The notes: generated by a model from the sequence alone, not told the origin. Counted from the first letter of the stretch, positions 1,268-56,588 are shown. The stretch: DNA of 64,000 bases from an uncultured bacterium (GCA_903892035.1 CAITGV010000002.1:65714-129713); one strand, 5' to 3'. Made by a program: numbers and translations.

Positions 1268-1294
1268 AAACCCAGTGGCTAAACCACTGGGTTT
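1268..1294. repeat. REP-like palindrome family P1 (aaacccagtgg-N5-ccactgggttt), copy a
   Basis: Perfect 11-bp inverted arms with 5-nt spacer; overlaps the stop codon and 3' end of the RAYT-like gene 1279..1950. Confidence 0.8.
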
Positions 1295-1950
1295 ATGGGT
1301 AAATCATCAGGATCCTCAAGAGAAATTTTTCTTCTTTCTTTGCGAATAATCGAAATAATTTCTGTGCAGTGCTTATTAAACTTCATCTTACTATCAAACA
1401 TACTTAATATCCTACGTCCCTCAGTTTGTGCTACAAAATCAAATACTTCATTATCATATTCTTTGTTACTTGAAAAAATTAGGTGTTTTTTATTTTCTGG
1501 AATATCATGTACAAGATAATTTTGATTTACATATGGAAAAATCTTATCAAAATAACTTTGATCATCAATTAGTTTGGATTTAAATGTTCCCTGAAAAAGA
1601 GATCCTGAACGTTTATGCCTATCATTAAAGTAATATGTATATCCACCTAATTTATGCATGAATTTTGCTATTCCACCGTCAATAAGTTGTTTTAAAATAA
1701 AATGATAATGATTTGGATTAAGCGTAAATGCCACAATTGCAACAATAGGTTCATTCTTTTCCAATTCCAGTGGCTTAGCCTCTGTTCTTGGTTTATCCCG
1801 CAGACTGCCAATATTTTCAAAAGTATTAAATTCTATAATACTCTCTTTAAATCGCTCAAGATCTTGGGTATCTAAAAATATGTCCCTTTTGTCTACGCCT
1901 CTATTGTAAATATGAAAATATTCTCCTGTTACTATTTTTTCTCTCCTCAT
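1279..1950 (-). CDS. IS200-like Y1 (HUH) transposase / REP-associated tyrosine transposase (RAYT)-like, copy 1
   Basis: YHIYNRGVDKR motif, HUH motif NHYHFIL, C-terminal GSLFQGTFKSK motif; paralog of 47135..47791; flanked on both sides by the P1 palindrome. Confidence 0.75.
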   Translation of the reverse strand: MRREKIVTGEYFHIYNRGVDKRDIFLDTQDLERFKESIIEFNTFENIGSLRDKPRTEAKPLELEKNEPIVAIVAFTLNPNHYHFILKQLIDGGIAKFMHKLGGYTYYFNDRHKRSGSLFQGTFKSKLIDDQSYFDKIFPYVNQNYLVHDIPENKKHLIFSSNKEYDNEVFDFVAQTEGRRILSMFDSKMKFNKHCTEIISIIRKERRKISLEDPDDLPINPVV

Positions 1951-11367: not shown

Positions 11368-11381
11368 TCAGAGGAAGTCAT

Positions 11382-11432
11382 ATAAATTTGGCGACTAAGT
11401 CCCCAAATGGTGGACTTAGTCGCCAAATTTAT
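11382..11432. repeat. perfect 21-bp inverted repeat (ataaatttggcgactaagtcc-N9-ggacttagtcgccaaatttat) in mreB/priA divergent intergenic region
   Basis: Arms are exact reverse complements, checked base by base; lies between divergent starts at 11367 and 11457. Confidence 0.85.
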
Positions 11433-11456
11433 GTGACTTTATGCTAGTCTATATAT

Positions 11457-13424
11457 ATGAAGATAGTTACAGTCCTCCCAATTACAAAATCCCCAGGTGG
11501 CGATGAGCTCACATATTTCACCTCGCTTCCCGTTGAGGTTGGAAAGCTGGTTGGAATGCCTATCGGAAAAAGAACAGAGCACGGCATCGTGATGGCTGTA
11601 GCTGATGTTGGTGATATTAAATCAGAAATCAAAGACGCAGATTTTAATTTAAGAAAAATTCAAAGTGTTCACGGTAAAGCTTTTTTTTCAAAAAGTTTCC
11701 TTATCGCTTGTGAAAAGTCTGCAAAATATTTTCTTGGAAGCACAGGCCAAGTAGTATCTGCGCTAGTACCAGCGGTATTTATGAGAAATTGTGAAAAAAT
11801 TATTGAGTTAAATGAGGATGCTGTTGAATATACAGAAAATTTAAATAAAAATAATCAAAAATTAATTATTCAAGATGCTGATGAGGATCGCTTTTCTTTT
11901 TATCGATCTCTTATTCGTGAAGGTTTTGCGCAAAAAAAATCAATTTTTGTATGCTTACCAACCATCGCAGATATAAATTATTTTTCTGAAAAACTAACTA
12001 AGGGTATTGAAGATTATTCATACATTTTTCATAGTGAAATTTCAGAAAAAGAGATCTTGAAACGCTATGCAAAATTAAAAAATGAAAATCACCCATATAT
12101 CATTATTTCTACGGGTCAATATTTCCACTTAATTACCAATAATATTTCAACAATTATTCTCGACTGTGAAAATAGCGATGAATATAAATTATTTTCTCGA
12201 CCACATATAGATGTGCGTGTTTTTGCAGAATTATTTTCAGGAGAAGCTAAAATTAAATTGATACTGGGCGACAGATTGCTTCGACCAGAAACAATTGCGC
12301 GACTCAAAAATGGAGAATTTAGCGATGCCCTTCCACCATCATTTCGTCTAACAAAACCAGACAAAGTAAAGCTTGTGGATATGAATAAGATGCCTGTGGA
12401 CGAAAAAAATTCAATATTAGATACAGATTTTATTTTTTCAACAGAATCAAAAGAAATGATTACAAAGCAAATTTTAAAAGGTGATAATGTTTTCCTTTTT
12501 ACACTTAGAAAAGGTCTAGCTCCTGTGACAGTTTGCGGTCATTGCGGAAATACTCTTAAATGTGAAAAATGTGGCCATCTCTTTGCTTTATACAATTTAA
12601 AAAAAGCTGACGGTGAACCAGCTCGACTTTTTATTTGTAATTTCTGTAAAGAAAAAAAACCTTCCGACACTTCTTGCGAAAAATGCGGAAGTTGGAATAT
12701 GCAAACATTAGGCATTGGAACAGATCTTGTCACAGAAAAAGTTAAAGAAATATTCAATTTACCTGATGAAAATATTTTTCAAATTGATAAAACAGTAGCG
12801 AAGACTTCTGTGCAAGCTCGAAAAATTGCTGAAAATTTTTATAAAACAAAAGGCTCTATTATGGTTGGAACTGAGATGGCTCTTCGATATTTAAAACAAC
12901 CAATTCAAAACTCTGTCATTCTTTCTCTTGATACATTGTTTGGAGTACCAAGTTTTGCTTCTGGAAATCAAATGCTTTGCCTTGTTTCTGATATGCTTTC
13001 AATTACGGAAAAAAATTTTATTGCTCAGACGAGAAATTCAGATTCTCTAGTTTGGGAATGTTTGCGTGGCGGAAGTGCCATGCGTTTTTATGATGAAGAG
13101 TTGAAGGAAAGGAAAATTTTCAACTATCCGCCATTTTCTACACTTATTAAAATTACGCATGCAGGGAAAAAAGATCAAGCAAATGAAGCTCGTCAGAAAC
13201 TGACTGATTTATTTAAAGATTATAATCCAGACCTCGTAAACGGTTTTATGAATATTTCTGGCGGACTTTACACTACAAAACTTATAATGAAAATAAAACG
13301 CTCCGACTGGTCCCTTCCCGAAATTCACCCTTCTGGTTCTCTTTCCCCCACCCTTTCCCAAAAACTTCGTTCCCTTACTCCAAATTTTGATATAAATATT
13401 GAACCCGTAGAAATAATCAGATAA
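11457..13424 (+). CDS. priA: primosomal protein N' (PriA)-like, helicase motifs degenerate
   Basis: PriA N-terminal 3'-binding domain and Cys-rich zinc finger CGHCGN...CEKCGH...CNFC...CEKCG. Walker A (QDADEDRFS in place of GVTGSGKT) and DExH (DCEN) lost. Confidence 0.7.
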   Translation: MKIVTVLPITKSPGGDELTYFTSLPVEVGKLVGMPIGKRTEHGIVMAVADVGDIKSEIKDADFNLRKIQSVHGKAFFSKSFLIACEKSAKYFLGSTGQVVSALVPAVFMRNCEKIIELNEDAVEYTENLNKNNQKLIIQDADEDRFSFYRSLIREGFAQKKSIFVCLPTIADINYFSEKLTKGIEDYSYIFHSEISEKEILKRYAKLKNENHPYIIISTGQYFHLITNNISTIILDCENSDEYKLFSRPHIDVRVFAELFSGEAKIKLILGDRLLRPETIARLKNGEFSDALPPSFRLTKPDKVKLVDMNKMPVDEKNSILDTDFIFSTESKEMITKQILKGDNVFLFTLRKGLAPVTVCGHCGNTLKCEKCGHLFALYNLKKADGEPARLFICNFCKEKKPSDTSCEKCGSWNMQTLGIGTDLVTEKVKEIFNLPDENIFQIDKTVAKTSVQARKIAENFYKTKGSIMVGTEMALRYLKQPIQNSVILSLDTLFGVPSFASGNQMLCLVSDMLSITEKNFIAQTRNSDSLVWECLRGGSAMRFYDEELKERKIFNYPPFSTLIKITHAGKKDQANEARQKLTDLFKDYNPDLVNGFMNISGGLYTTKLIMKIKRSDWSLPEIHPSGSLSPTLSQKLRSLTPNFDINIEPVEIIR

Positions 13425-13425
13425 T

Positions 13426-13459
13426 TCCCTCTCCTTTACAAGGAGAGGGCTAGGGAGAG
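13426..13459. repeat. GC-rich hairpin repeat family R4, copy a (ccctctcctt-tac-aaggagaggg + ctagggagagg)
   Basis: 10-bp perfect stem directly after priA stop; about 85% identical to the inverse copy inside tsaD at 38512..38544. Confidence 0.7.
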
Positions 13460-13508
13460 GTTCTCGCATTTGCGTTTCTAAAAAGAAAGTGGTATTATCT
13501 TTTTACAT

Positions 13509-13760
13509 ATGCCAAAAGTACACATTGAAGTAAAAAAGGGTCCAAATGAAAACAACGTCACATTGTTGCGTCGTTTTTCTCGCAAAGTGCAAGATACAAG
13601 AATGATTCCAAAGGTTAAAGGTGCTCGTTACAATGAACGCGCAAAATCAAAATTAACTACAAAGAAAGGTGCTCTAAAGCGTCTTGCTCGCTGGAAAGAT
13701 AACGAGAAATTACGAAAACTTGGAAAAGTAATCGAACGCAAGAAAGGCGGACGACGCTAA
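13509..13760 (+). CDS. rpsU: 30S ribosomal protein bS21
   Basis: MPKVHIEVKKGPNENNVTLLRRFSRKVQ...basic C-terminal tail; typical S21. Confidence 0.85.
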   Translation: MPKVHIEVKKGPNENNVTLLRRFSRKVQDTRMIPKVKGARYNERAKSKLTTKKGALKRLARWKDNEKLRKLGKVIERKKGGRR

Positions 13761-13782
13761 ATTAACATATGCAGAATAAGAG

Positions 13783-13833
13783 AAATCTTCGCGCTTTACC
13801 CTCTCTACGGGGGCTCCGACACGACTCTGATTT
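13783..13833. repeat. GC-rich repeat family R3, copy a (aaatcttcgcgctttaccctctctacgggggctccgacacgactc + t/a gattt)
   Basis: 45 nt identical to 54604..54648; short terminal inverted ends aaatc/gattt; intergenic between rpsU and ybeY. Confidence 0.8.
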
Positions 13834-13906
13834 ATCTCATTCTGCTCCTACTATCAGCATAATAAGAGAAACAAAAGGCGAGCTTCCTAGCTTGCCTTTT
13901 GCCTAT

Positions 13907-30913: not shown

Positions 30914-31080
30914 ATAAAAAAATTCCTTCGGAGAGGAATTTTTGCGCATGCTAATGCAATACGTTTCCTGCTCGGGACTTACATCATATTAGTAATCGGA
31001 CTTTTCCATTTTATTGGAATCACCGTAGCGGCACTGTGCAGGATTCACACCTGCTTCCCTAATATGAATATTATTTTTTT
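30914..31080 (-). promoter_or_regulatory. cobalamin (B12) riboswitch-like leader with intrinsic terminator expression platform
   Basis: Minus-strand RNA contains AGGGAAGCAGGUGUGAAUCCUGCACAGUGCCGCUACGGUGA, matching the cobalamin aptamer core GGGAA..GGUG..AAUCC..GC.G.CCCGC.AC.GU. Followed by hairpin AAUUCCU-cuccga-AGGAAUU plus U7 at 30914..30943. Confidence 0.7.
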
Positions 31081-31092
31081 AAATGCTTCAAC

Positions 31093-37557: not shown

Positions 37558-38853
37558 ATGAGAATATTATCTATTGAAACAAGTTGCGACGAGACATCTA
37601 TCGCAATTGTCGACGCAAAAGGTGGAATTAAAAATCCAGTATTTAAGGTGCTCGCGCACGAGACTGCTTCACAGATAGAACTTCATACACAATACGGAGG
37701 AGTTTTTCCAATGATGGCTAAGCGCGAGCATAGTAAAAATATTGTTCCGCTTTTTATTAAAGCATTGAAGAAAGCAAAAATGTTGTCGTATTCTTCCTCT
37801 CCTTTGGGGAGGTTAGGAGGGGTTCTTGAAAAAGCCCTCGTCCGTGAACCCGAAATGCTTGAAATATTTTTGCGTGAAATTCCTAAAATTAAAATTCCAA
37901 AAATTGATTTAATTGCCGTAACTGCCGGTCCAGGACTTGAGCCTGCACTTTGGGTTGGAATTAATTTTGCTCAAGCACTTGGCAAAGTTTGGAAAATACC
38001 AGTGAGACCAATAAATCACATGGAAGGACACGTCATGTCGGTTTTGATACAAAAACCGACAAAAATGTCTAAATCAGAATTTCTAATTTCTAAAAAAAAT
38101 ACTCAAAAGGTGGATGTGAAATTTCCTGCGATATCACTGCTTGTTTCTGGAGGACACACAGAAATTGTTTTAGTAAAAAATTGGATGGAATACAAAATGC
38201 TCGGTGCTACTCGCGACGACGCTGCAGGAGAAGCTTTTGATAAAGTGGCACGAATGCTTGACCTTCCCTATCCTGGAGGGCCTGAGATTTCGAGGTTAGC
38301 ACAAATCTACAGAAAAATGCTTGACTCGACCACACATAAAATCGTGCTCGATTTTTGCTCTGCTCAAGCCGTCGCTTTGCGCAAGGGTCTCCCTAAGCAT
38401 TTTTCTTCCGATATTCATTTCCCTCGACCGATGATCAATAGTAAAGATTTTGATTTTTCATTTTCAGGACTTAAAACTGCGGTTTTATATTACATACGAG
38501 ACAAATACAACCCCACCCTAGCCCTCTCCTTATCAAGGGAGGGAAAAATGCAAATAGCAAAAGAATTTGAAGATGCAGTTGTAGAAGTACTTGTTACAAA
38601 AACTTTACGTGCAGTTGAAAAATATGAAGCCAAAAGTTTAATTGTTGGTGGTGGAGTTTCCGCAAACAATGAACTACAAAATCAGTTAAAAAAACAAATA
38701 AAAAATAAAAAACTTTCCACAAAACTTTATTTGCCAATAAAAAACCTTTCCACCGACAATGCCCTTATGATAGCCCTCGCTGGATATTTTCGCTCAGTTC
38801 AAGGAAAAAAATATACTAAAAAAATCAAAGCCTCTGGAAACCTTGGTTTATAA
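37558..38853 (+). CDS. tsaD: tRNA N6-adenosine threonylcarbamoyltransferase TsaD (Kae1/Gcp family) with GC-rich insertions
   Basis: MRILSIETSCDETSIAIV, HMEGH, SGGHTE, GGGVSAN motifs; 431 aa versus about 340 typical, with three insert segments. Confidence 0.85.
   Translation: MRILSIETSCDETSIAIVDAKGGIKNPVFKVLAHETASQIELHTQYGGVFPMMAKREHSKNIVPLFIKALKKAKMLSYSSSPLGRLGGVLEKALVREPEMLEIFLREIPKIKIPKIDLIAVTAGPGLEPALWVGINFAQALGKVWKIPVRPINHMEGHVMSVLIQKPTKMSKSEFLISKKNTQKVDVKFPAISLLVSGGHTEIVLVKNWMEYKMLGATRDDAAGEAFDKVARMLDLPYPGGPEISRLAQIYRKMLDSTTHKIVLDFCSAQAVALRKGLPKHFSSDIHFPRPMINSKDFDFSFSGLKTAVLYYIRDKYNPTLALSLSREGKMQIAKEFEDAVVEVLVTKTLRAVEKYEAKSLIVGGGVSANNELQNQLKKQIKNKKLSTKLYLPIKNLSTDNALMIALAGYFRSVQGKKYTKKIKASGNLGL
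38512..38544. repeat. repeat family R4, copy b (inverse orientation), in-frame inside tsaD
   Basis: Reverse complement ccctcccttgataaggagagggctagggtgggg matches 13426..13459; encodes NPTLALSLSREGK, an insertion relative to other TsaD sequences. Confidence 0.7.
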
Positions 38854-38897: not shown

Positions 38898-41666
38898 ATG
38901 CCTCCACACAAAGAAATACCAGAAATACTACTGAAACCATACGACCCAAAAGCGACTGAATCTCGAATATATAAGCTCTGGGAAGAGAGTGGTTTTTTTA
39001 ACCCAGAAAATTGCATCGAAGCCGGAATAATAAAAGAGGATGCAAAGCCATTTACAATAATGATGCCACCACCAAATGTCACTGGAGTACTTCATATGGG
39101 ACACGCAATGATGATTACACTCGAAGACATTATGATTCGTTATAAAAGAATGCAAGGCTACCGCACTCTCTGGCTCCCTGGTACAGATCACGCAGCAATT
39201 GCTACTCAATCAAAAGTTGAAAAAGAAATTTGGAAAAAAGAAGGTTTAAGTAGGCACGATTTAGGTCGCGATGAACTTTTTCGTCGAACGTCTGAATTTG
39301 CACAAAAAAGTCACGATACAATTGTCTCCCAAATAAAAGTAATGGGCGCTTCTTGTGATTGGAGTCGTGAAGCATTTACTCTCGACAATAGCCGAAATTT
39401 GGCCGTAAATACAATGTTTAAAAAAATGTATGATGATGGGCTAATTTATCGCGGACATAGAGCTGTAAACTGGGATCCAAAAGGTCAGACGACAATTGCC
39501 GATGATGAAATAGTTTACGAAGAACGTAAAGCAAAAATTTATACTTTTAAATACTCAAAAGATTTTCCAATTTCAATTTCTACAACTCGCCCCGAAACAA
39601 AAGTTGGTGATACCGCAGTTGCAGTGCACCCCGAAGACGAACGCTATGCTAAATACATCGGTCAAACTTTTCATATTGATGATTTTTGTGGAGTTGCTCT
39701 TGATATAGTAATCATTGCAGATAAAATTGTTGAAAAGGATTTTGGTACAGGAGCTCTCGGTGTGACTCCCGCACATAGTATGACTGACTGGGAAATTGCC
39801 GACAGACACAACTTACCTCGACCACAAGTAATAAATGAATATGCAAAAATGATGGTGGGCGACGATCGTATAAAAGGTAAAAAAACCACCGATGCACGAG
39901 AAGTCATTGTCGAGTGGTTGAGAAATGAGGGACTTTTAGAAGCAGAAGAAGAGGTCTCGCAAAATGTCGGTACAGCAGAAAGAACTGGTGGCATCATCGA
40001 GCCACTTCCAAAACTTCAATGGTTCATCGCTGTAAATAAAGAATTTACTATTCCCTATTCTGAAATTCCTGGAATAAAATCTGGAGATAAAACCACATTA
40101 AAAGAAATTATGCGTAAAGCGGTTGAAAACGAATCGATAAAAATTTTACCAGACTATTTTAATAAAACATATTTTCATTGGATAGAAAATCTTCGTGATT
40201 GGTGTATTTCAAGACAAATCTGGTATGGCCACAGAGTGCCTGTATGGTACGACGGTGTGGGCACTGAAATAATGCCAAAGGAACGTTCAATTTATCTTGC
40301 TAGACATGGTCAATGCGAAGCAAATGTTAGTAATATTATTCCGACACAAAACGATGCAGACACTTCTCCATTAACTGACCTAGGAAAAGAACAAGCAAAA
40401 GCTCTCGGTGAATCCTTAAAAGATAAAAATATTACTCGTATCATTTGTTCTAAAATGAAACGTTCACAAGACACAGCAAAAATAGTGGCAGAAGTTTTGG
40501 GGCATTCTGATGAAATAATTGAAACATGGAACGATTTGCATGAAGTATGTTTCCCAGATGAGCTTGCGGGAAAAGAAAAATCAAAAAATTATAATCCCCT
40601 CGATGAATCTGTATCGCACGGAATGGGAGAGAGCTTAACCGAACTTGAAGATAGAGCTCGAGGTGTAATTGAAAAAATTATAAATTTAGGTAACCCAGGT
40701 GAAGTATTAATTGTGGGTCACGGAGGTTTTAATTCAATACTTAAAGCTGTGCATGATGGACTTCCAAAAGAAAAATTTGTTGAACATAGAAATGTGATGG
40801 GCGCAATGAAAAATGGTTCATGTTTATCACTGCATTTCATGCGTCTTCCTGATCAAGAAAAAGAGGGGCTTTTTCAAGATGAAGATACTCTTGATACTTG
40901 GTTTTCAGCTGGTATGTGGACGTTTTCAACTCTTGGTTGGCCAAACAAAACAGAAGATTTAAAAATTTACCATCCGACAGATGTGCTTGAAACTGGTTAC
41001 GAAATTCTCTTCTTCTGGGTTGCTAGAATGATTCTTATGTCTGGATATGCCTTGGGCACAATTCCATTTAAAAATGTTTACCTACACGGTACAGTTCGCG
41101 ATGGACAAGGTAGGAAAATGAGTAAATCACTTGGAAATGGTATAGACCCACTCGATATTGCAGATAAATACGGAGCAGATGCAGGACGAATGGCGATAAT
41201 AGTAGGAACAGCCGCTGGAACTGATAGCAAAATTTCAGAAGATAAAATTAAAGGCTACAAACATTTTGCAAATAAAATTTGGAATATTACACGTTTTGTA
41301 CTTTCAAATTCTGATATTAAAAATATTCACGCAACTCTAAATGAAAAGGATGGAGCTCTAACGCTCGCTCGTGACACAATATTTAGAGAAATTACAAATG
41401 AACTTGATGAATATAAATTTCACATTGCAACTGAAAAAATTTATCAATACATTTGGCATGAGTTTGCAGATAAAATACTCGAAGATAGTAAAATTATTTT
41501 TACAGATGGTAGTGAAAATGATAAAATTTCAAGAGAAGCTTTCCTACAAGAAACACTTCAGAAATGCTTAGTAGTATTGCATCCATTTATGCCTTACGTT
41601 ACAGAAGAAATTTGGAAAGTTACTGGAAACAACAGTTTGCTAATGATTGAAAAATGGCCTTCCTAA
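38898..41666 (+). CDS. valS: valyl-tRNA synthetase with an inserted histidine-phosphatase (PGM-family) domain
   Basis: PPPNVTGVLHMGH and KMSKSLGN class I motifs, ValRS editing and anticodon domains. Between GHRVPVWYDG and TLDTWFSAGMW (normally about 35 aa) lie about 200 aa with LARHGQCEAN, SKMKRSQDTA and LIVGHGGFNSIL motifs (about 40257..40888). Confidence 0.85.
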   Translation: MPPHKEIPEILLKPYDPKATESRIYKLWEESGFFNPENCIEAGIIKEDAKPFTIMMPPPNVTGVLHMGHAMMITLEDIMIRYKRMQGYRTLWLPGTDHAAIATQSKVEKEIWKKEGLSRHDLGRDELFRRTSEFAQKSHDTIVSQIKVMGASCDWSREAFTLDNSRNLAVNTMFKKMYDDGLIYRGHRAVNWDPKGQTTIADDEIVYEERKAKIYTFKYSKDFPISISTTRPETKVGDTAVAVHPEDERYAKYIGQTFHIDDFCGVALDIVIIADKIVEKDFGTGALGVTPAHSMTDWEIADRHNLPRPQVINEYAKMMVGDDRIKGKKTTDAREVIVEWLRNEGLLEAEEEVSQNVGTAERTGGIIEPLPKLQWFIAVNKEFTIPYSEIPGIKSGDKTTLKEIMRKAVENESIKILPDYFNKTYFHWIENLRDWCISRQIWYGHRVPVWYDGVGTEIMPKERSIYLARHGQCEANVSNIIPTQNDADTSPLTDLGKEQAKALGESLKDKNITRIICSKMKRSQDTAKIVAEVLGHSDEIIETWNDLHEVCFPDELAGKEKSKNYNPLDESVSHGMGESLTELEDRARGVIEKIINLGNPGEVLIVGHGGFNSILKAVHDGLPKEKFVEHRNVMGAMKNGSCLSLHFMRLPDQEKEGLFQDEDTLDTWFSAGMWTFSTLGWPNKTEDLKIYHPTDVLETGYEILFFWVARMILMSGYALGTIPFKNVYLHGTVRDGQGRKMSKSLGNGIDPLDIADKYGADAGRMAIIVGTAAGTDSKISEDKIKGYKHFANKIWNITRFVLSNSDIKNIHATLNEKDGALTLARDTIFREITNELDEYKFHIATEKIYQYIWHEFADKILEDSKIIFTDGSENDKISREAFLQETLQKCLVVLHPFMPYVTEEIWKVTGNNSLLMIEKWPS

Positions 41667-47075: not shown

Positions 47076-47111
47076 TATAGCAAAAAATGCCTTAAATTAA
47101 AAGCTAACTTT

Positions 47112-47132
47112 TTTGGGAGCTTAGCTCCCAAA
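47112..47132. repeat. REP-like palindrome family P2 (tttgggagc-tta-gctcccaaa), copy a
   Basis: Perfect 9-bp arms, 3 bp after the RAYT copy 2 stop. Confidence 0.8.
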
Positions 47133-47134
47133 TG

Positions 47135-47791
47135 TTAGTCGATGCACACTGATTTAAAATCACTTAAATCTTCCTTTCTTTTTCGAATTAAGGGTAATGT
47201 GTCTTTGGAATATTTAATAAAATCAGAAGAACTTTTAAATTGATCTAGAATAATATCTTTCTTACATATTCCATTTTTTTGCTCACCACTATATTCTGCA
47301 AAACTAGAAAATGGCAACTCCCTCATCCACAACTTGTTCATTCCTTCATGAACCATATTGTTCAAATTCACATAAACACCGAGATACAGTAAATACTCGT
47401 TTGAAGAAATATGCTTGGCTTTGTATGTTCCTTGAAAAAGCGAACCGGAACGGTCATTTTTTTCATTGAAATAATTCGTATACCCGGTAGAAATCCTGTG
47501 CATAAATTTCTGTACACCATTTTCAACCAAAGGCTCAAGAATAAAATGAAAATGATTTTGATTTAGACAGTACGCAATAATATTCACCAACTTTTTGGGA
47601 GCTAAGCTCCCAAATTTGTCATCTTCTCTTGATTTTTCATAAATACTTCCAATTATATCTACTGTATTAAACATCTCCATGCTATTAAGAAATCGTTGAA
47701 GGTCTTCCTTGTCTTCAAAAATATTTCTTTTATCAACACCACGATTATATATATGATAAAACTCACCTTCTTCAAATACTGTGTATCTCAT
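47135..47791 (-). CDS. IS200-like Y1 transposase / RAYT-like, copy 2 (contains an in-frame P2 palindrome)
   Basis: YHIYNRGVDKR, NHFHFIL (HUH), GSLFQGTYKAK motifs; about 45% identical to copy 1. P2 copy at 47594..47614 lies in-frame (encodes KFGSLAPK). Confidence 0.75.
   Translation of the reverse strand: MRYTVFEEGEFYHIYNRGVDKRNIFEDKEDLQRFLNSMEMFNTVDIIGSIYEKSREDDKFGSLAPKKLVNIIAYCLNQNHFHFILEPLVENGVQKFMHRISTGYTNYFNEKNDRSGSLFQGTYKAKHISSNEYLLYLGVYVNLNNMVHEGMNKLWMRELPFSSFAEYSGEQKNGICKKDIILDQFKSSSDFIKYSKDTLPLIRKRKEDLSDFKSVCID
47594..47614. repeat. P2 palindrome copy b (inverse orientation, spacer taa) inside RAYT copy 2 coding sequence
   Basis: tttgggagc-taa-gctcccaaa. Confidence 0.8.
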
Positions 47792-47806
47792 AACAATATT
47801 GTACCA

Positions 47807-47827
47807 TTTGGGAGCTTAGCTCCCAAA
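47807..47827. repeat. P2 palindrome copy c
   Basis: 16 bp upstream of the RAYT copy 2 start, directly after the LysE stop. Confidence 0.8.
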
Positions 47828-47828
47828 T

Positions 47829-48449
47829 TTATTTGAGAAAATAAATTATCTCTGTATATAGTATTTTTAAGGCGAGCAAAAATACTAAAATAGCTAGGGC
47901 CACAAATACTTTTCTAATAACTCTTTCATTCAGCAAAAATTTCCTTAGTGCATTAAAACCAAAAAAGATAATAGTTATCACCACAACCATTGAAATTTCA
48001 AATATTGCTACAAATAGATACTCCCCGTAATGAATACTGCTACCCATACTAAACGCAATAGGAAGACATACGGAAGTCCAATACAACCATAGTGGGCCAT
48101 TAAAAATCATTAACAGAAAAATATGTTTTATGCCAACTTTCTTTTGTTCTTTCGTATAATCAATTTTTCTAATTTTATAAAGCTGTAGTGCAATATACGC
48201 AAGCATCACCACACCAACAAAAGCAAAAATATGAAAAACAACATGCGGAATTTTTAACCAAGAAGAAGTCGCGACAAGTAAAAGGCCGATAAAAAACTCT
48301 GTCAGCCCTGCCACAATAATGTACATTCCCCCATTCACAAGACCCTTTTTAGGTGATCTTAATATTTCAGATAGAGCAATCAAAAGTATCGGACCAGGAG
48401 TAAGCCCACCTATAAATCCTAAAATTATTGTTGTAATGATATCTTTCAT
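47829..48449 (-). CDS. LysE/RhtB-family amino-acid exporter
   Basis: N-terminal GFIGGLTPGPILL motif characteristic of the LysE family; 6 TM. Confidence 0.7.
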   Translation of the reverse strand: MKDIITTIILGFIGGLTPGPILLIALSEILRSPKKGLVNGGMYIIVAGLTEFFIGLLLVATSSWLKIPHVVFHIFAFVGVVMLAYIALQLYKIRKIDYTKEQKKVGIKHIFLLMIFNGPLWLYWTSVCLPIAFSMGSSIHYGEYLFVAIFEISMVVVITIIFFGFNALRKFLLNERVIRKVFVALAILVFLLALKILYTEIIYFLK

Positions 48450-48456
48450 ATTCCTT

Positions 48457-48477
48457 TTGGGAGCTTAGCTCCCAAAT
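48457..48477. repeat. P2 palindrome copy d
   Basis: 8 bp upstream of the LysE start, abutting the ABC transporter stop. Confidence 0.8.
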
Positions 48478-50250
48478 TTATTCGATAAATCCCCCACTTT
48501 GGTGCGCCCAAAGGTCGGCATAAACTCCTTTCTTTTTTAGTAGTTGTTTGTGATTGCCGTCTTCGACAATAGTTCCATTTTCAAGAACAATTATTCTATC
48601 CATTTTTTGAATTGTTGAAAGTCGGTGTGCGATAACAATAACAGTCTTATCTTTCATTAATTCAACTAATGCTTCTTGGATATATGATTCACTTACACTA
48701 TCTAGTGCACTTGTTGCTTCATCAAGCAAAAGTATCGGAGCATTTTTGAGCATTGCACGCGCAATTGCTACACGCTGACGTTCACCACCTGAAAGTTTTA
48801 CACCTCTTTCACCTACAAAAGTTTCATAACCTTTTGGTAATTTAGAAATAAAATCATGAGCATGAGCTTTTTTTGCAACTTCAATAATTTCTTCTTCTGT
48901 CGCATCTGGTTTTCCATATGCAATGTTCTCACGAATTGTACGATGAAATAAAACTGATTCTTGTGGTACATACGAAATCATACTCCTTAAGTCATCCTGC
49001 AATACATTACGAATATCCTGATCATCTATAGTTATGCTTCCTTTGGTCACATCCATAAAACGCAAAATTAAATTTGTAATTGTAGATTTTCCAGCACCGG
49101 AGTGCCCAACAATTCCAATTCGCTGTCCGTGCGGTATATCTAAAGTAAAATTTGAAAATATTTCAGTATTATTTCCATAATCAAAAGATACATCACTAAA
49201 TTGCAAATTACCTTTTTGCATTTTTAATACTTCCGGATTTATTGGGTCCTCAATATCAGACTTAATTTCAAAAATATCAATCATTTCTTTCATATCTGCA
49301 CCAGCTTTCATAAATTTTGTAAGAGAGTTACCAAAATCCCAAAGTTTATCAAAAATAACAACAATAAAACCCTGTACCAATACAATAGTTCCTGTAGTAA
49401 TTTTATTATTTAGCCAAAGATGAACCATTACATATAAAAGTGAACCTTGAACAATAAATGCTAGAACTGCCTGAATGACTTCAATTTTCCCGGCAAGAAA
49501 CCAAGCTTTTCTACTTTTAATTGAAGCATCCTCAGTAATTTCTTTAAATGAATTGGTTTCAGATTTGGTTGCAGAAAATATTTTAACAGCAAGAATATTT
49601 CCAAATATATCAGCAAGGCGTCCGCTTATACTCGAATCAGATGCTGCTTCAATCACATCATATTTAATTTTTCTACGTAAAAAGAAAGCAATGATACTAA
49701 AATAAATTAATACCCATATTAAAAAGAAAAAGGATATTATTACTGAAGTCTTACCTAAAACAATAAAAACACCAACTAAAACTATAAATGTTGACCAGAA
49801 ATTAAAAAGCAAAATATCAAACATTGTTTCAAATGACCCAACAAATCGACGTGACTTTGTCACCAAAGAACCAGAAAAAGTATTTGCAAAAAAAGTTTGT
49901 GAGTGATATTGAATTTTTTTTAATGAAAAATTACGTAATTCTTTTATTACATTTATCTCAAAGGCGAAAAAAATAAACTTACAGACTCTAGCAGTAATTG
50001 TAGTTAGCAAACTTATAAAAATAATAGTCACAACCAAAATTAGTAGCCCATGAGATAAGTCAGCTTTATTTGTAACATTTTCAGACAATGTATCTATAAT
50101 TTTCTTAAAATAAAAGGGTCTTATTATATATTCAAGTGTAGTTCTAATTCCAAATATTATAAATATTGCATAAAAAGAGCCACGATATTTTCGCATTTGT
50201 GGCCATATGTATTTATATATTTTTTTAAACATTACAAAATTATAACACAA
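48478..50250 (-). CDS. ABC exporter, fused permease/ATPase (MsbA-like)
   Basis: 6-TM domain plus GHSGAGKST Walker A, LSGGERQRVAIARA signature, LLLDEATSALD Walker B. Confidence 0.85.
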   Translation of the reverse strand: MCYNFVMFKKIYKYIWPQMRKYRGSFYAIFIIFGIRTTLEYIIRPFYFKKIIDTLSENVTNKADLSHGLLILVVTIIFISLLTTITARVCKFIFFAFEINVIKELRNFSLKKIQYHSQTFFANTFSGSLVTKSRRFVGSFETMFDILLFNFWSTFIVLVGVFIVLGKTSVIISFFFLIWVLIYFSIIAFFLRRKIKYDVIEAASDSSISGRLADIFGNILAVKIFSATKSETNSFKEITEDASIKSRKAWFLAGKIEVIQAVLAFIVQGSLLYVMVHLWLNNKITTGTIVLVQGFIVVIFDKLWDFGNSLTKFMKAGADMKEMIDIFEIKSDIEDPINPEVLKMQKGNLQFSDVSFDYGNNTEIFSNFTLDIPHGQRIGIVGHSGAGKSTITNLILRFMDVTKGSITIDDQDIRNVLQDDLRSMISYVPQESVLFHRTIRENIAYGKPDATEEEIIEVAKKAHAHDFISKLPKGYETFVGERGVKLSGGERQRVAIARAMLKNAPILLLDEATSALDSVSESYIQEALVELMKDKTVIVIAHRLSTIQKMDRIIVLENGTIVEDGNHKQLLKKKGVYADLWAHQSGGFIE

Positions 50251-54122: not shown

Positions 54123-56588
54123 TTAAAATACGATATTAACCAAACGCCCCTTTACGTAAATAACCTTTTTAATTTCTTTACCTTCTATCCAGTTCACCAC
54201 GGCATGATCTTTCATTGCCATTGCTTTTACTTCTTCTTCATTCATTTCATTTGAAATTTTTATTTCTGCTCGTACTTTTCCATTTACAGATACAGCAATA
54301 GTAATTTCATTGTCGATAACTTTTTTAGGGTCAAATTTAGGCCAAAGAGAAAGGTGTATTGATTTTTTTTCGCCCAATTCACTCCAAAGTTGTTCTGTGA
54401 TATGTGGCGCAAAAGGTGCGAGAATTTGCAGAAACATTTTAAAATCCTTCTCGTCTACAGATTCAGCTTTTTCCATTTCATTTAAACAAATCATCATAGC
54501 TGAAACTGCAGTATTAAAACTCGTCGTCTCAATATCTTCTGTAACTTTTTTTATAGTTTTGTGCAGTGTAGCTTGCAGCGTTAGGTATGCTGAAGAATAA
54601 ATAAAATCTTCGCGCTTTACCCTCTCTACGGGGGCTCCGACACGACTCAGATTTTTTTTATTCTTCAGCATATTCTGCGCAACGATTTTATTATAAATTT
54701 TCCAAACGCGCTCTAGAAATCTTCTAGGGCCCACCATCGAATCTGTACTCCACGATACATGCTGATCAAATGGACCCATAAACATTTCATATACTCGCAA
54801 AGTATCTGCCCCAAAAGTTTTCACAATTGCATCAGGATTTATAACATTGCCTTTTGATTTTGACATTTTCTCTCCACCGTCAGCCAAAATTAAACCGTGA
54901 GATGTTCTTTTTTGATATGGCTCTTTTGTTGGAACCAATTTTAAATCATAAAGAAATTTATGCCAGAATCTTGAATACAATAAGTGAAGAGTTGTGTGCT
55001 CCATACCACCATTGTACCAATCGACGGGTGTAAAATATTTTAAATTCTTTTTCGAAGCAAATTCTTTTTTATTTTTTGGATCTGTATATCGTAAATAATA
55101 CCAAGAGCTTCCTGCCCAGTTTGGCATTGTGTCGGTTTCTCTTTTTGCTTTACCTTTACATTTTGGACATTTTACATTTACCCATTTTGTAATTTCAGCC
55201 AAAGGACTTTCACCATTATCAGTCGGCTCATATTTTTTTACTTTTGGAAGTACTACTGGTAAATCTTTTTCAGGCACAGGTACTACTCCACATTTTTCAC
55301 AATGAATCATTGGTATCGGTTCACCCCAATATCTTTGTCTTGAAAAAACCCAATCACGAAGTTTGTATTTTGTAACAATTCTTCCACCGACAAAATCTGT
55401 AATTTCCTTTCGGGCATATTCACTAGTCATTCCATCAAATTTTCCAGAATTTGTCAGTATTCCATCTCCAGTAAAACATTCGGATTCAATTCCTTGTGGG
55501 TTATTTAAAACCTGCTTCATTGGCAAATTGTATTTTTTTGCAAAAGCAAAATCCCGCTCATCATGCATATCTGCAAATATTGCTCCTGTGCCATATTGCG
55601 CAAGCACAAAATCTGCAATATAAATTGGAATCTCTTCACCATTTACTGGATTTATAGCTTTTACTCCTTTTAACTCAACACCGGTCTTATCCTTATCCTC
55701 AGAAGTACGTTCTATATCTGTTTTCTTTTTTGTATCATTAATATATTTTTCAATTTCACTTAAATTTAAAATTTGTGATTTAATTTTCAAAATCATCGGA
55801 TGTTCTGGGGCCAAAGTTAACGCAAAAGCACCAAATAAAGTATCGGCTCTTGTTGTGAAAGTGGTAATTTTTTCATCACTATTTTTAATTTTAAAATCAA
55901 TTTCACTTCCCTCGCTTTTTCCTATCCAATTCCTTTGTTGAATTTTAATTTTTTCCAAATAGTCCACAGTGTCGAGATCTTTATCGAGCCTGTCTGCATA
56001 TTTTGTTATTGCAAGCATCCACTGCTCTTTGTCGCGCTTTTCTACAGGTGTGCCACATCTTTCACAACAACCAGCAATTACCTCTTCGTTTGCAAGGCCA
56101 ATTTTGTCTTTCGGACACCAGTTGATAGCAATGCGAGCTTTATATGCCAAACCTTTTTTATAGAATTGCAAAAATATCCATTGCGTCCATTTATAGTACG
56201 CTGGATCTGTGGTATTTATTTCTCTATCCCAATCAAAACCAAAACCAAGTTCTTTTAATTGTCGGCGAAAAGTGTCAGTATTTTTCTTTGTAATTGCTTC
56301 GGGTTGTTTACCTGTTTTAATTGCATAATTTTCTGTAGGCAAACCAAAAGCATCCCAACCAATTGGATAAAGAGTATTGTAACCCTGCATGCGTCGTTTG
56401 CGAGTGATGATATCCATCGCAGTATTGCTTCTGATGTGGCCCACGTGCAAACCATCTCCAGATGGATATGGAAATTCAATGAGGCCAAAAAACTTTTTAC
56501 CTTTTGTATTTTTTACAGAATAAATTTTTTTCTTATCCCATTCCTTCTGCCACTTTTTTTCAATTTTTTTATGATCGTAAATTTTCAT
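54123..56588 (-). CDS. leuS: leucyl-tRNA synthetase
   Basis: HVGHIRSNTAMDI HIGH region, KMSKSKGN, LeuRS CP1 and anticodon-binding domains. Confidence 0.95.
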   Translation of the reverse strand: MKIYDHKKIEKKWQKEWDKKKIYSVKNTKGKKFFGLIEFPYPSGDGLHVGHIRSNTAMDIITRKRRMQGYNTLYPIGWDAFGLPTENYAIKTGKQPEAITKKNTDTFRRQLKELGFGFDWDREINTTDPAYYKWTQWIFLQFYKKGLAYKARIAINWCPKDKIGLANEEVIAGCCERCGTPVEKRDKEQWMLAITKYADRLDKDLDTVDYLEKIKIQQRNWIGKSEGSEIDFKIKNSDEKITTFTTRADTLFGAFALTLAPEHPMILKIKSQILNLSEIEKYINDTKKKTDIERTSEDKDKTGVELKGVKAINPVNGEEIPIYIADFVLAQYGTGAIFADMHDERDFAFAKKYNLPMKQVLNNPQGIESECFTGDGILTNSGKFDGMTSEYARKEITDFVGGRIVTKYKLRDWVFSRQRYWGEPIPMIHCEKCGVVPVPEKDLPVVLPKVKKYEPTDNGESPLAEITKWVNVKCPKCKGKAKRETDTMPNWAGSSWYYLRYTDPKNKKEFASKKNLKYFTPVDWYNGGMEHTTLHLLYSRFWHKFLYDLKLVPTKEPYQKRTSHGLILADGGEKMSKSKGNVINPDAIVKTFGADTLRVYEMFMGPFDQHVSWSTDSMVGPRRFLERVWKIYNKIVAQNMLKNKKNLSRVGAPVERVKREDFIYSSAYLTLQATLHKTIKKVTEDIETTSFNTAVSAMMICLNEMEKAESVDEKDFKMFLQILAPFAPHITEQLWSELGEKKSIHLSLWPKFDPKKVIDNEITIAVSVNGKVRAEIKISNEMNEEEVKAMAMKDHAVVNWIEGKEIKKVIYVKGRLVNIVF
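54604..54654. repeat. repeat family R3, copy b, in-frame inside leuS
   Basis: 45 nt identical to 13783..13827; translated on the minus strand as NLSRVGAPVERVKREDF in a variable linker. Confidence 0.8.

Follow-up and report, generated by a model that had tools for sequence, protein, structure and literature searches.

A small GC-rich sequence lies just past priA in a 64,000-nt stretch of DNA (the window) from an uncultured bacterium of the Patescibacteria, or Candidate Phyla Radiation (CPR) (GCA_903892035.1 CAITGV010000002.1:65714-129713), and an inverted version of it is embedded in-frame in tsaD. The locus raises the question of what kind of element can occur both between genes and inside the gene for an essential enzyme in DNA of low GC content (about 35%). 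Sequence comparison places the element, termed R4, in the BoxC/PIT/TM class of bacterial repeats. Its most notable features are its presence in CPR bacteria, a core that is nearly identical across phyla, and copies that persist in-frame in tsaD and alaS; such copies in essential CPR genes are what is new.

Architecture of the R4 copies at priA and in tsaD

R4 is built of three blocks. A pyrimidine arm (Y) is followed by a purine arm (R) that is its Watson-Crick complement, and a purine tail then mirrors R; in the intact copy (copy A) two 3-nt loops join the blocks. The original prediction described a small GC-rich hairpin repeat. The repeat is confirmed, but a plain hairpin is not the right description because the unit is a three-block Y-R-R(mirror) intrastrand-triplex motif. 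Copy A was placed correctly downstream of priA, with its start (given as 13426) one base off. Its sequence reads CCCTCTCCTT-TAC-AAGGAGAGGG-CTA-GGGAGAGGTT, and its parts and neighbors are as follows.

13427..13462, + strand: copy A, intact 36-nt class II triplex motif, intergenic, 3 nt past the priA stop
13427-13436, + strand: copy A Y arm, CCCTCTCCTT
13437-13439, + strand: copy A loop1, TAC
13440-13449, + strand: copy A R arm, AAGGAGAGGG
13450-13452, + strand: copy A loop2, CTA
13453-13462, + strand: copy A mirror (reverse-Hoogsteen) arm, GGGAGAGGTT
11457..13424, + strand: priA, open reading frame (ORF) upstream of copy A, Pfam PF17764 PriA_3primeBD
13509-13760: next ORF after copy A (ORF call)

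The arms and loops of copy A measure 10/3/10/3/10 nt. Direct reading of the sequence gives 10/10 Watson-Crick pairs between the Y and R arms, and 10/10 third-strand contacts are of allowed types (6 C.G*G, 2 T.A*A and 2 T.A*T). This triplet reading also accounts for the conservation of the terminal TT and the inner TT/AA. The predicted hairpin has 10 bp and a free energy of -21.2 kcal/mol, and copy A scores 65.8 bits against the R4 covariance model. No T-run lies downstream of copy A, which rules out its reading as a terminator.

Two further copies lie in tsaD.

37558..38853, + strand: tsaD, 431 amino acids, carries copies B and C
38509..38545, - strand: copy B, degenerate, G-rich strand is the minus strand, in-frame in tsaD at codons 318-330
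38509-38518 (shown on +): copy B, reverse complement of the mirror arm, AACCCCACCC
38519-38521 (shown on +): copy B, TAG
38522-38531 (shown on +): copy B, reverse complement of R, CCCTCTCCTT
38532-38534 (shown on +): copy B loop, ATC
38535-38543 (shown on +): copy B, reverse complement of Y, AAGGGAGGG, one base short
37796..37824, + strand: copy C, short 7-triplet relative, in-frame in tsaD at residues 80-89 (SSPLGRLGGV)

On the plus strand copy B reads AACCCCACCC-TAG-CCCTCTCCTT-ATC-AAGGGAGGG (38509-38543) and encodes TsaD N318-PTLALSLSREGK-330, that is N318-K330 (NPTLALSLSREGK). The relationship between copies A and B, predicted at about 85% identity after inversion, is 87% complementarity over 30 nt (13433-13462 versus 38509-38538; repeat pair I18), and the two share an exact 16-mer. 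Copy B retains 9 Watson-Crick pairs with a 1-nt bulge and 9/10 allowed third-arm contacts, and scores 51.2 bits against the covariance model. These properties point to a decaying copy. Copy C has the same three-block order at 7/3/7/3/7 nt: Y CCTCTCC (37796-37802), loop TTT, R GGGGAGG (37806-37812), loop TTA, mirror arm GGAGGGG (37816-37822) and TT. It has 6/7 Watson-Crick pairs plus one G.T, and 7/7 allowed third-arm contacts. The degenerate relative that the original prediction saw in another tsaD insertion is this copy, weak in sequence (10.8 bits, E = 0.28) and alike in architecture. When copies A, B and C are aligned together, each ends in GGTT and each is preceded by T. All three, with copy B read on the minus strand, have the order Y, R, reverse-Hoogsteen arm and the loops of 1-6 nt that define class II of the PIT/ITxF scheme.

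The window was scanned under Holder-style rules (class II, stem of at least 7, at most 1 mismatch, loops of 1-6, GC of at least 50%). Exactly two motifs were returned, copy A with a stem of n = 10-11 and copy C with n = 7, 1 mismatch and a GC fraction of 0.81. Copy A is the sole copy in the window with a stem of at least 8 triplets and at most 1 mismatch. The gap-free scan does not catch copy B, which has a Y arm short by one base and one G opposite A in the mirror arm. Across 300 windows simulated with matching dinucleotide statistics, such motifs averaged 0.007 per 64 kb, and none had a stem of at least 8.

A hairpin-anchored test was applied to perfect 8-bp G/C-rich Y/R hairpins in 119 fetched loci, with canonical-core and self-mirror purine arms dropped. 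A perfect 8/8 mirrored arm occurs 1-6 nt downstream in 41 of 134 hairpin strands (31%) versus 0.16% at random positions, and a direct-repeat rule is satisfied by just 8 of the 134. The mirrored cases span 22 different R sequences (for example AGGGGGAG/GAGGGGGT, GGAGAAGG/GGATGAGG and AAAGGGGG/GGGGGATT), and T occurs only opposite A. These counts indicate that, in many sequence families, the three arms of the class II design covary. Variant-cell covariation in the nhmmer alignment, an underpowered comparison, did not separate the mirror from a shifted mapping.

Relation to BoxC and range of the R4 core

The BoxC repeat of Escherichia coli is the PIT element (Hoyne, Edwards, Viari and Maher 2000) and the TM-ECO motif (Holder et al. 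2015, PMC4666352). The TM-ECO consensus is CCCTCNCCC N3-6 GGGNGAGGG N3 GGGNGAGGG, with TTA as loop2 in type A (PMC4666352). Its single strand forms a stable triplex by circular dichroism and nuclear magnetic resonance (NMR), with a melting temperature of 70-82 C, and a G-quadruplex was excluded by NMR (PMC4666352). The same study took stems of at least 8 triplets with at most 1 mismatch as non-random and found many G/C-rich triplex motifs in cyanobacteria (PMC4666352).

R4 resembles BoxC/TM-ECO in length (about 36-37 nt), in its class II order of Y, loop, R, 3-nt loop (TTA/CTA) and mirrored purine arm, in an identical 8-triplet core (CCCTCTCC / GGAGAGGG / GGGTGAGG) and in a loop2 as found in E. 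coli copies. Both occur as dispersed single units, at times as inverted pairs or full palindromes, and neither is associated with transposases, phages or plasmids; the published analysis likewise found no tie of TM-ECO to transposons, phages or plasmids (PMC4666352). Measured against the strict TM-ECO pattern, copy A matches 8/9 triplets. The ninth is T.A*T for C.G*G, consistently in all three arms, and would count as the one mismatch that the rules allow. The R4 stem accordingly differs from BoxC at its end, with T.A*T (..CCTT / AAGG.. / ..GGTT) where BoxC has C.G*G. R4 also differs in range. It occurs in CPR bacteria, in Cyanobacteria and Bacteroidota and in further phyla; the census of TM-ECO is of 3610 copies across 262 proteobacterial genomes (PMC4666352). 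The third difference is location: TM-ECO copies in E. coli K-12 are reported to be intergenic without exception (PMC4666352), whereas R4 is in-frame in tsaD and alaS here and also lies in rsmA, nifS-like and rluB-like genes of other CPR genomes.

E. coli itself carries the core. The 19-nt sequence GGAGAGGGCTAGGGTGAGG is present exactly in 1502/5426 complete E. coli genomes, and the flgG-flgH spacer contains TCCCCTCTCCC-TCGA-GGGAGAGGG-CTA-GGGTGAGGGGG beside type A and type B BoxC units. Across strains this spacer (L127-L130) varies from about 70 to about 330 nt, and one strain has a four-BoxC cluster where others have sequence of the repetitive extragenic palindromic (REP) type. The spacer was considered as an empty-site/filled-site comparison and rejected: the REP-type sequence is replaced wholesale by the BoxC cluster, and no clean footprint can be read.

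The 23-nt pattern shared by copies A and B (AAGGAGAGGGCTAGGGNGNGGTT, 21 specified bases) was scanned against one genome per species, 596 Gb in all. At least 117 stretches matched versus about 0.3 expected by chance. The matches listed, by record title, are 42 Patescibacteria, 17 Cyanobacteria and Melainabacteria, 16 Bacteroidota, 3 Ignavibacteria, 20 Gammaproteobacteria, 9 Armatimonadota, 4 delta-proteobacteria, 1 Chloroflexota, 1 Cloacimonadota and 4 unclassified; these numbers per group are not a census. The R4 core is thus present in more than 100 species of at least 8 bacterial phyla. The original prediction missed this spread, and the core is not private to this genome. A 10-mer shuffle test, which is a weak one, gave 5 matches versus 1.5 expected.

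In 118 foreign copies the conserved stretch opens sharply at T(T/C)CCCTCTCC and closes at GGTT. Loop1 differs between copies both in its sequence and in its length (1-4 nt), and no signal is seen in the flanks. Lineages have their own flavors: Pedobacter copies have a GGGAGAGG tail and a T-rich loop, Rivularia copies a GGGTGAGG tail, Gracilibacteria a 1-nt loop and Armatimonadota a 4-nt loop. These lineage-specific forms suggest that the unit has multiplied inside each lineage and has not been exchanged constantly among lineages in recent times. Four loci (L052, L028, L044 and L072) contain full palindromes or an upstream reverse complement of the tail (AACCTC(A/T)CCC ... GGG(T/A)GAGGTT), matching the inverted-pair BoxC of E. 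coli. Viral contigs in IMG/VR gave 2 matches to the unit, a search of phages gave 0, and among plasmids it was found in Photobacterium only. No Rfam family was found at any copy (the window at the gathering threshold, eight loci at an E-value threshold), and a full-text literature search with the exact R4 sequence returned only an unrelated human STAT3 paper.

Copies inside protein-coding genes

The window is part of the 157.8-kb contig ENA ERZ27313596 k141_432308. About 16 kb of this contig past the window ends was added, giving about 80 kb in total for this genome, or about half of the contig; other genomes were covered as 8-kb pieces. A fourth R4 copy was found in-frame in alaS. It lies outside the window, about 2.8 kb ahead of its start, and encodes EPLPSPLLVNERG near the C-terminal editing domain. 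It is identical to copy A at 37/38 bases, loop TAC included, and this loop is present in just 1/118 foreign copies. The near-identity of the two copies, including the rare loop, indicates that the R4 unit moved or was copied within this genome. Of the four copies found in these 80 kb, three are inside genes, two in tsaD and one in alaS.

TsaD has four insert regions relative to solved TsaD structures, at about residues 76-108, 166-184, 255-287 and 318-330. Three patches with at least 60% GC over 30 nt fall within them (37793-37825, 38356-38399 and 38510-38543), in line with the three GC-rich segments that had been predicted; the middle one is not R4-like. At the position of copy B the alignment shows a 7-residue gap in E. 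coli and Salmonella TsaD and a 9-residue gap in 8iey, so the segment is indeed extra relative to E. coli TsaD. An AlphaFold2 model of the protein (mean predicted local distance difference test score, pLDDT, 84) places both copies in inter-helix loops. Residues 318-330 (copy B) are predicted between helices 303-317 and 327-355 with a pLDDT of about 78-80, and residues 80-89 (copy C) between helices 51-72 and 87-93 with a pLDDT of about 75.

In a search of 5.8 billion proteins, the closest TsaD homologs reached no more than 56-58% identity. In a 25-sequence alignment the CPR TsaDs all show variable-length loops at the same four places, and the peptides of copies B and C are found in no other sequence of that alignment. 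Peptides typical of such motifs occur in just 5/120 TsaD homologs, at different loops. The gene for homolog P0004 has a canonical minus-strand unit at residues 291-302 (KPHPNPLLKGED), which is the copy B loop in another reading frame, a second unit at residues 245-257 (RTSPQPSPYKGEG) and, in the copy C loop, a unit on the plus strand whose second loop is enlarged. Homolog P0016 retains only tail remnants (AACCTCACCCC..), in two loops. The P0004 and P0016 copies are best read as independent hits followed by decay, and comparison with these distant homologs suggests that the tsaD copies arose by insertion, not ancestry. Together, the existence of the alaS copy and the lack of conservation of the insert peptides in TsaD homologs agree with the original view of the inserts as repeat copies.

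Several TsaD homologs have loosely similar peptides (LDF.RS...L.R..) in the loop that corresponds to the middle GC patch (38356-38399, residues about 267-281; GCTCTGCTCAAGCCGTCGCTTTGCGCAAGGGTCTCCC); this segment may represent another repeat family.

The majority of foreign copies are intergenic. In-frame copies in Pfam-confirmed domains were found in a class V aminotransferase (NifS-like), an RNA pseudouridine synthase (RluB-like), RsmA (two copies), a Ser/Thr kinase of Rivularia that also has tandem partial units, a Wzy_C protein and DUF6580. The reading frames in use agree with the positions of stop codons in the unit. One frame (..KERARVR..) is open on the G-rich strand when the tail is TGAGG, and two (NLTLALSL..RRG and PHPSPLL..KER) are open on the C-rich strand, on which most genic copies are read.

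Two of these hosts have additional features. The rsmA/ksgA gene of L109 (1058-1969, - strand) contains two in-frame triplex motifs, the canonical KPHPSPLLSKERG and the variant CCCCCTCCTT-ACT-AAAGAAGGGG-TTA-GGGGGAGGTC (DLPLTPSLVRRGK). The L109 record is titled Gammaproteobacteria yet is low in GC, and the Y1 gene that neighbors rsmA/ksgA there is 39-42% identical to the Y1 genes of the window. The Rivularia Ser/Thr kinase genes (L041 3619-3763; L004, ORF residues about 240-268) carry the motif together with tandem partial units. The partial units lack the pyrimidine arm, consist of the purine arm, the loop and the mirror arm, and encode repeated KPH(S/P)(N/S)PLL peptides.

Short repeats are known from other bacterial genes. 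Rickettsia palindromic elements (RPE), reportedly described by Ogata et al. in 2000, are said to be about 100-150 bp long, confined to Rickettsia and in-frame inside essential genes. R4 resembles them as a probably selfish palindromic repeat that is in-frame in essential genes of a reduced genome and adds surface peptide segments. It differs in its size of 36 nt, its CPR host and its unrelated sequence; only the in-frame lifestyle is in common, and we know of no description of a triplex architecture in RPE. The small dispersed repeats (SDR) of cyanobacteria, reportedly described by Elhai et al. in 2008, are said to be 21-27 nt long, both intergenic and genic, and found in Nostoc-type cyanobacteria. 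They resemble R4 as very small, mobile-looking repeats, and Nostoc-type cyanobacteria also carry R4.

Explanations for R4 and other features of the window

The explanation that we consider probable is that R4 belongs to the BoxC/PIT class as a structure-forming repeat that is selfish and non-autonomous, with copies that persist where protein loops tolerate them and afterwards decay. Whenever the G-rich strand is exposed as a single strand, be it at a replication fork, within a transcription bubble or in the course of repair, its Y and R arms would pair as a hairpin. The mirror arm would then enter the major groove and form G*G.C, A*A.T and T*A.T triplets, giving a class II purine-motif intrastrand triplex. 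By analogy with TM-ECO of E. coli, the R4 strand presumably folds in this way. The unit, which codes for nothing itself, would multiply within the genome, and in a gene-dense CPR genome most landing sites would be genes. Surviving copies would be those that keep the reading frame (36 nt corresponds to 12 codons), avoid the TAG/TGA frames and lie in tolerant inter-helix loops. Such copies would erode through point mutations and small indels, as in B and C, and leave lineage-specific loop extensions in TsaD and AlaRS. The three-part anatomy, the spread over phyla, the near-identity of copies within the genome, their in-frame positions and their lack in most orthologs are direct observations; that R4 is selfish or neutral, that selection filters which copies survive and that the copies form a series of progressive decay is our inference.

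Several observations weigh against this explanation. The in vivo dimethyl sulfate footprint of TM-ECO shows no stable triplex (PMC4666352). No empty-site/filled-site pair was found for any R4 copy. The net gain at the copy B loop is 6-9 residues and not 12, and the history of the site therefore includes loss as well as gain and is not a simple 36-nt insertion. The Y arm of copy B has lost a base and its mirror arm has a mismatch, and copy C is below significance; the membership of both is partly architecture-based. The near-identity of the 23-nt core across phyla is also unusual for a purely selfish repeat and could reflect a conserved host factor or function.

The last point bears on the idea that R4 is a functional cis element under selection, such as a pause or recombination site, a host-protein binding site or an mRNA hairpin, rather than selfish DNA. 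The core is nearly invariant over at least 8 phyla while the flanks and loop1 vary, and the architecture co-varies. TM-ECO loci show raised local genome variability and are hypervariable among E. coli strains (PMC4666352), and the flgG-flgH spacer is highly variable too. A cis element is nevertheless unlikely. R4 copies occur in either orientation, between genes and inside unrelated genes, copy A lacks the T-run of a terminator, and the in-gene copies are visibly decaying (B, C and the P0016 remnants). The published work found neither promoter nor terminator activity for TM-ECO and no bias in neighboring gene classes (PMC4666352), and purine-motif triplexes do not form in RNA (PMC4666352). Mobilization of R4 as a REP-type element by a REP-associated tyrosine transposase (RAYT; Y1/HUH transposase), perhaps one of the two in the window, is quite unlikely as well. 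R4 shares with REP/REPIN elements a short GC-rich palindromic unit with an asymmetric extension, many copies, lineage-specific subfamilies and occasional in-frame genic copies. The window encodes two Y1_Tnp proteins, each with its own flanking palindromes (D13, D4), and REP/RAYT systems are therefore active in the lineage; on the C-rich strand of R4 a CTAG adjoins the palindrome and resembles the GTAG head of REPs. The palindromes around both Y1 genes, however, are unrelated to R4 in sequence, and no Y1 gene flanked by R4 was found in the 80 kb of this genome or the 8-kb pieces of others. A tblastn search with both Y1 proteins against the 119 R4-bearing loci hit only L109, whose Y1 gene has yet another flanking palindrome. 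The R4 head is CTAG (TTAA/CTAA in variants) followed by the conserved 10-nt arm and not GTAG or CGTC, and the search gave no cognate RAYT. REPs lack the mirrored third arm of R4, and BoxC of E. coli has no associated transposase (PMC4666352). The tsaD segments could instead be adaptive protein modules whose DNA likeness to copy A is secondary, since they lie in loops of an essential enzyme with the frame kept. This is highly improbable: genes differ in the frame in which they read the DNA unit, with at least three frames in use (NLTLALSL.., PHPSPLL.. and ..KERARVR), the peptides are confined to 5 of the 120 TsaD homologs and stand in different loops there, and copy A is intergenic.

A selfish BoxC/PIT-class repeat thus remains the preferred explanation. 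No transposase, terminal inverted repeats or target duplication is evident for R4. It does not have the properties of a miniature inverted-repeat transposable element: no duplication is conserved in the flanks, where only one or two T-rich bases on the 5' side recur, and the unit is asymmetric. A broader proposal, which we hold only tentatively and consider doubtful, is that BoxC-type motifs are one ancient repeat class that would spread transposase-free via their own structure, for example by fold-back-induced template switching or repair at single-stranded DNA. Either this mode of spread or a host factor common to all would keep the 23-nt core nearly constant across at least 8 phyla, and in ultra-compact CPR genomes the class would regularly give rise to lineage-specific loop insertions in essential translation genes (tsaD, alaS and rsmA).

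To our knowledge, BoxC/PIT elements have been recognized since the 1990s with neither an established function nor an established route of spread. The present results extend the BoxC core to CPR bacteria and many other phyla, and in-frame persistence in essential genes gives the family a second, protein-level footprint. In-frame persistence also partly explains the odd, variable loop insertions of CPR orthologs. Gene-embedded copies are dated and constrained by their host genes, and rates of insertion and decay as well as target sites could become measurable in population metagenomes.

The window has several other features. The Y1_Tnp (IS200-like, RAYT-like) genes are at 1279-1950 (- strand) and 47135-47791 (- strand). 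The first (region 1266-1998) is bracketed by the perfect palindrome AAACCCAGTGGCTAAGCCACTGGGTTT at 1266 and 1970, and the second (region 47101-47840) by TTTGGGAGCTTAGCTCCCAAA at 47101 and 47804, with a further copy at 48453-48489. A related palindrome lies between mreB and priA (11375-11439). This arrangement looks like two REP/RAYT-type systems in a CPR genome, and a literature search for REP/RAYT in CPR found nothing. A 74-nt direct repeat (13770-13843 and 54591-54664, 89% identical) contains ACCCTCTCTACGGGGGCTCCGACACGACTC and has no Rfam family. Its first copy covers the start of a long ybeY ORF in which the YbeY domain starts at residue 51.

The valyl-tRNA synthetase gene (38898-41666, 922 amino acids) encodes a His_Phos_1 (histidine-phosphatase) domain between the tRNA-synt_1 halves, according to precomputed Pfam assignments. 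An adenosylcobalamin (AdoCbl) riboswitch at 30958-31084 (- strand, 53 bits) is upstream of a block encoding an energy-coupling factor (ECF)-type transporter component, class II ribonucleotide reductase and cobalamin adenosyltransferase. Between 57437 and 57628, 21-nt periodic repeats encode acidic peptide repeats of the (E/D)(D/E)(V/I) type.

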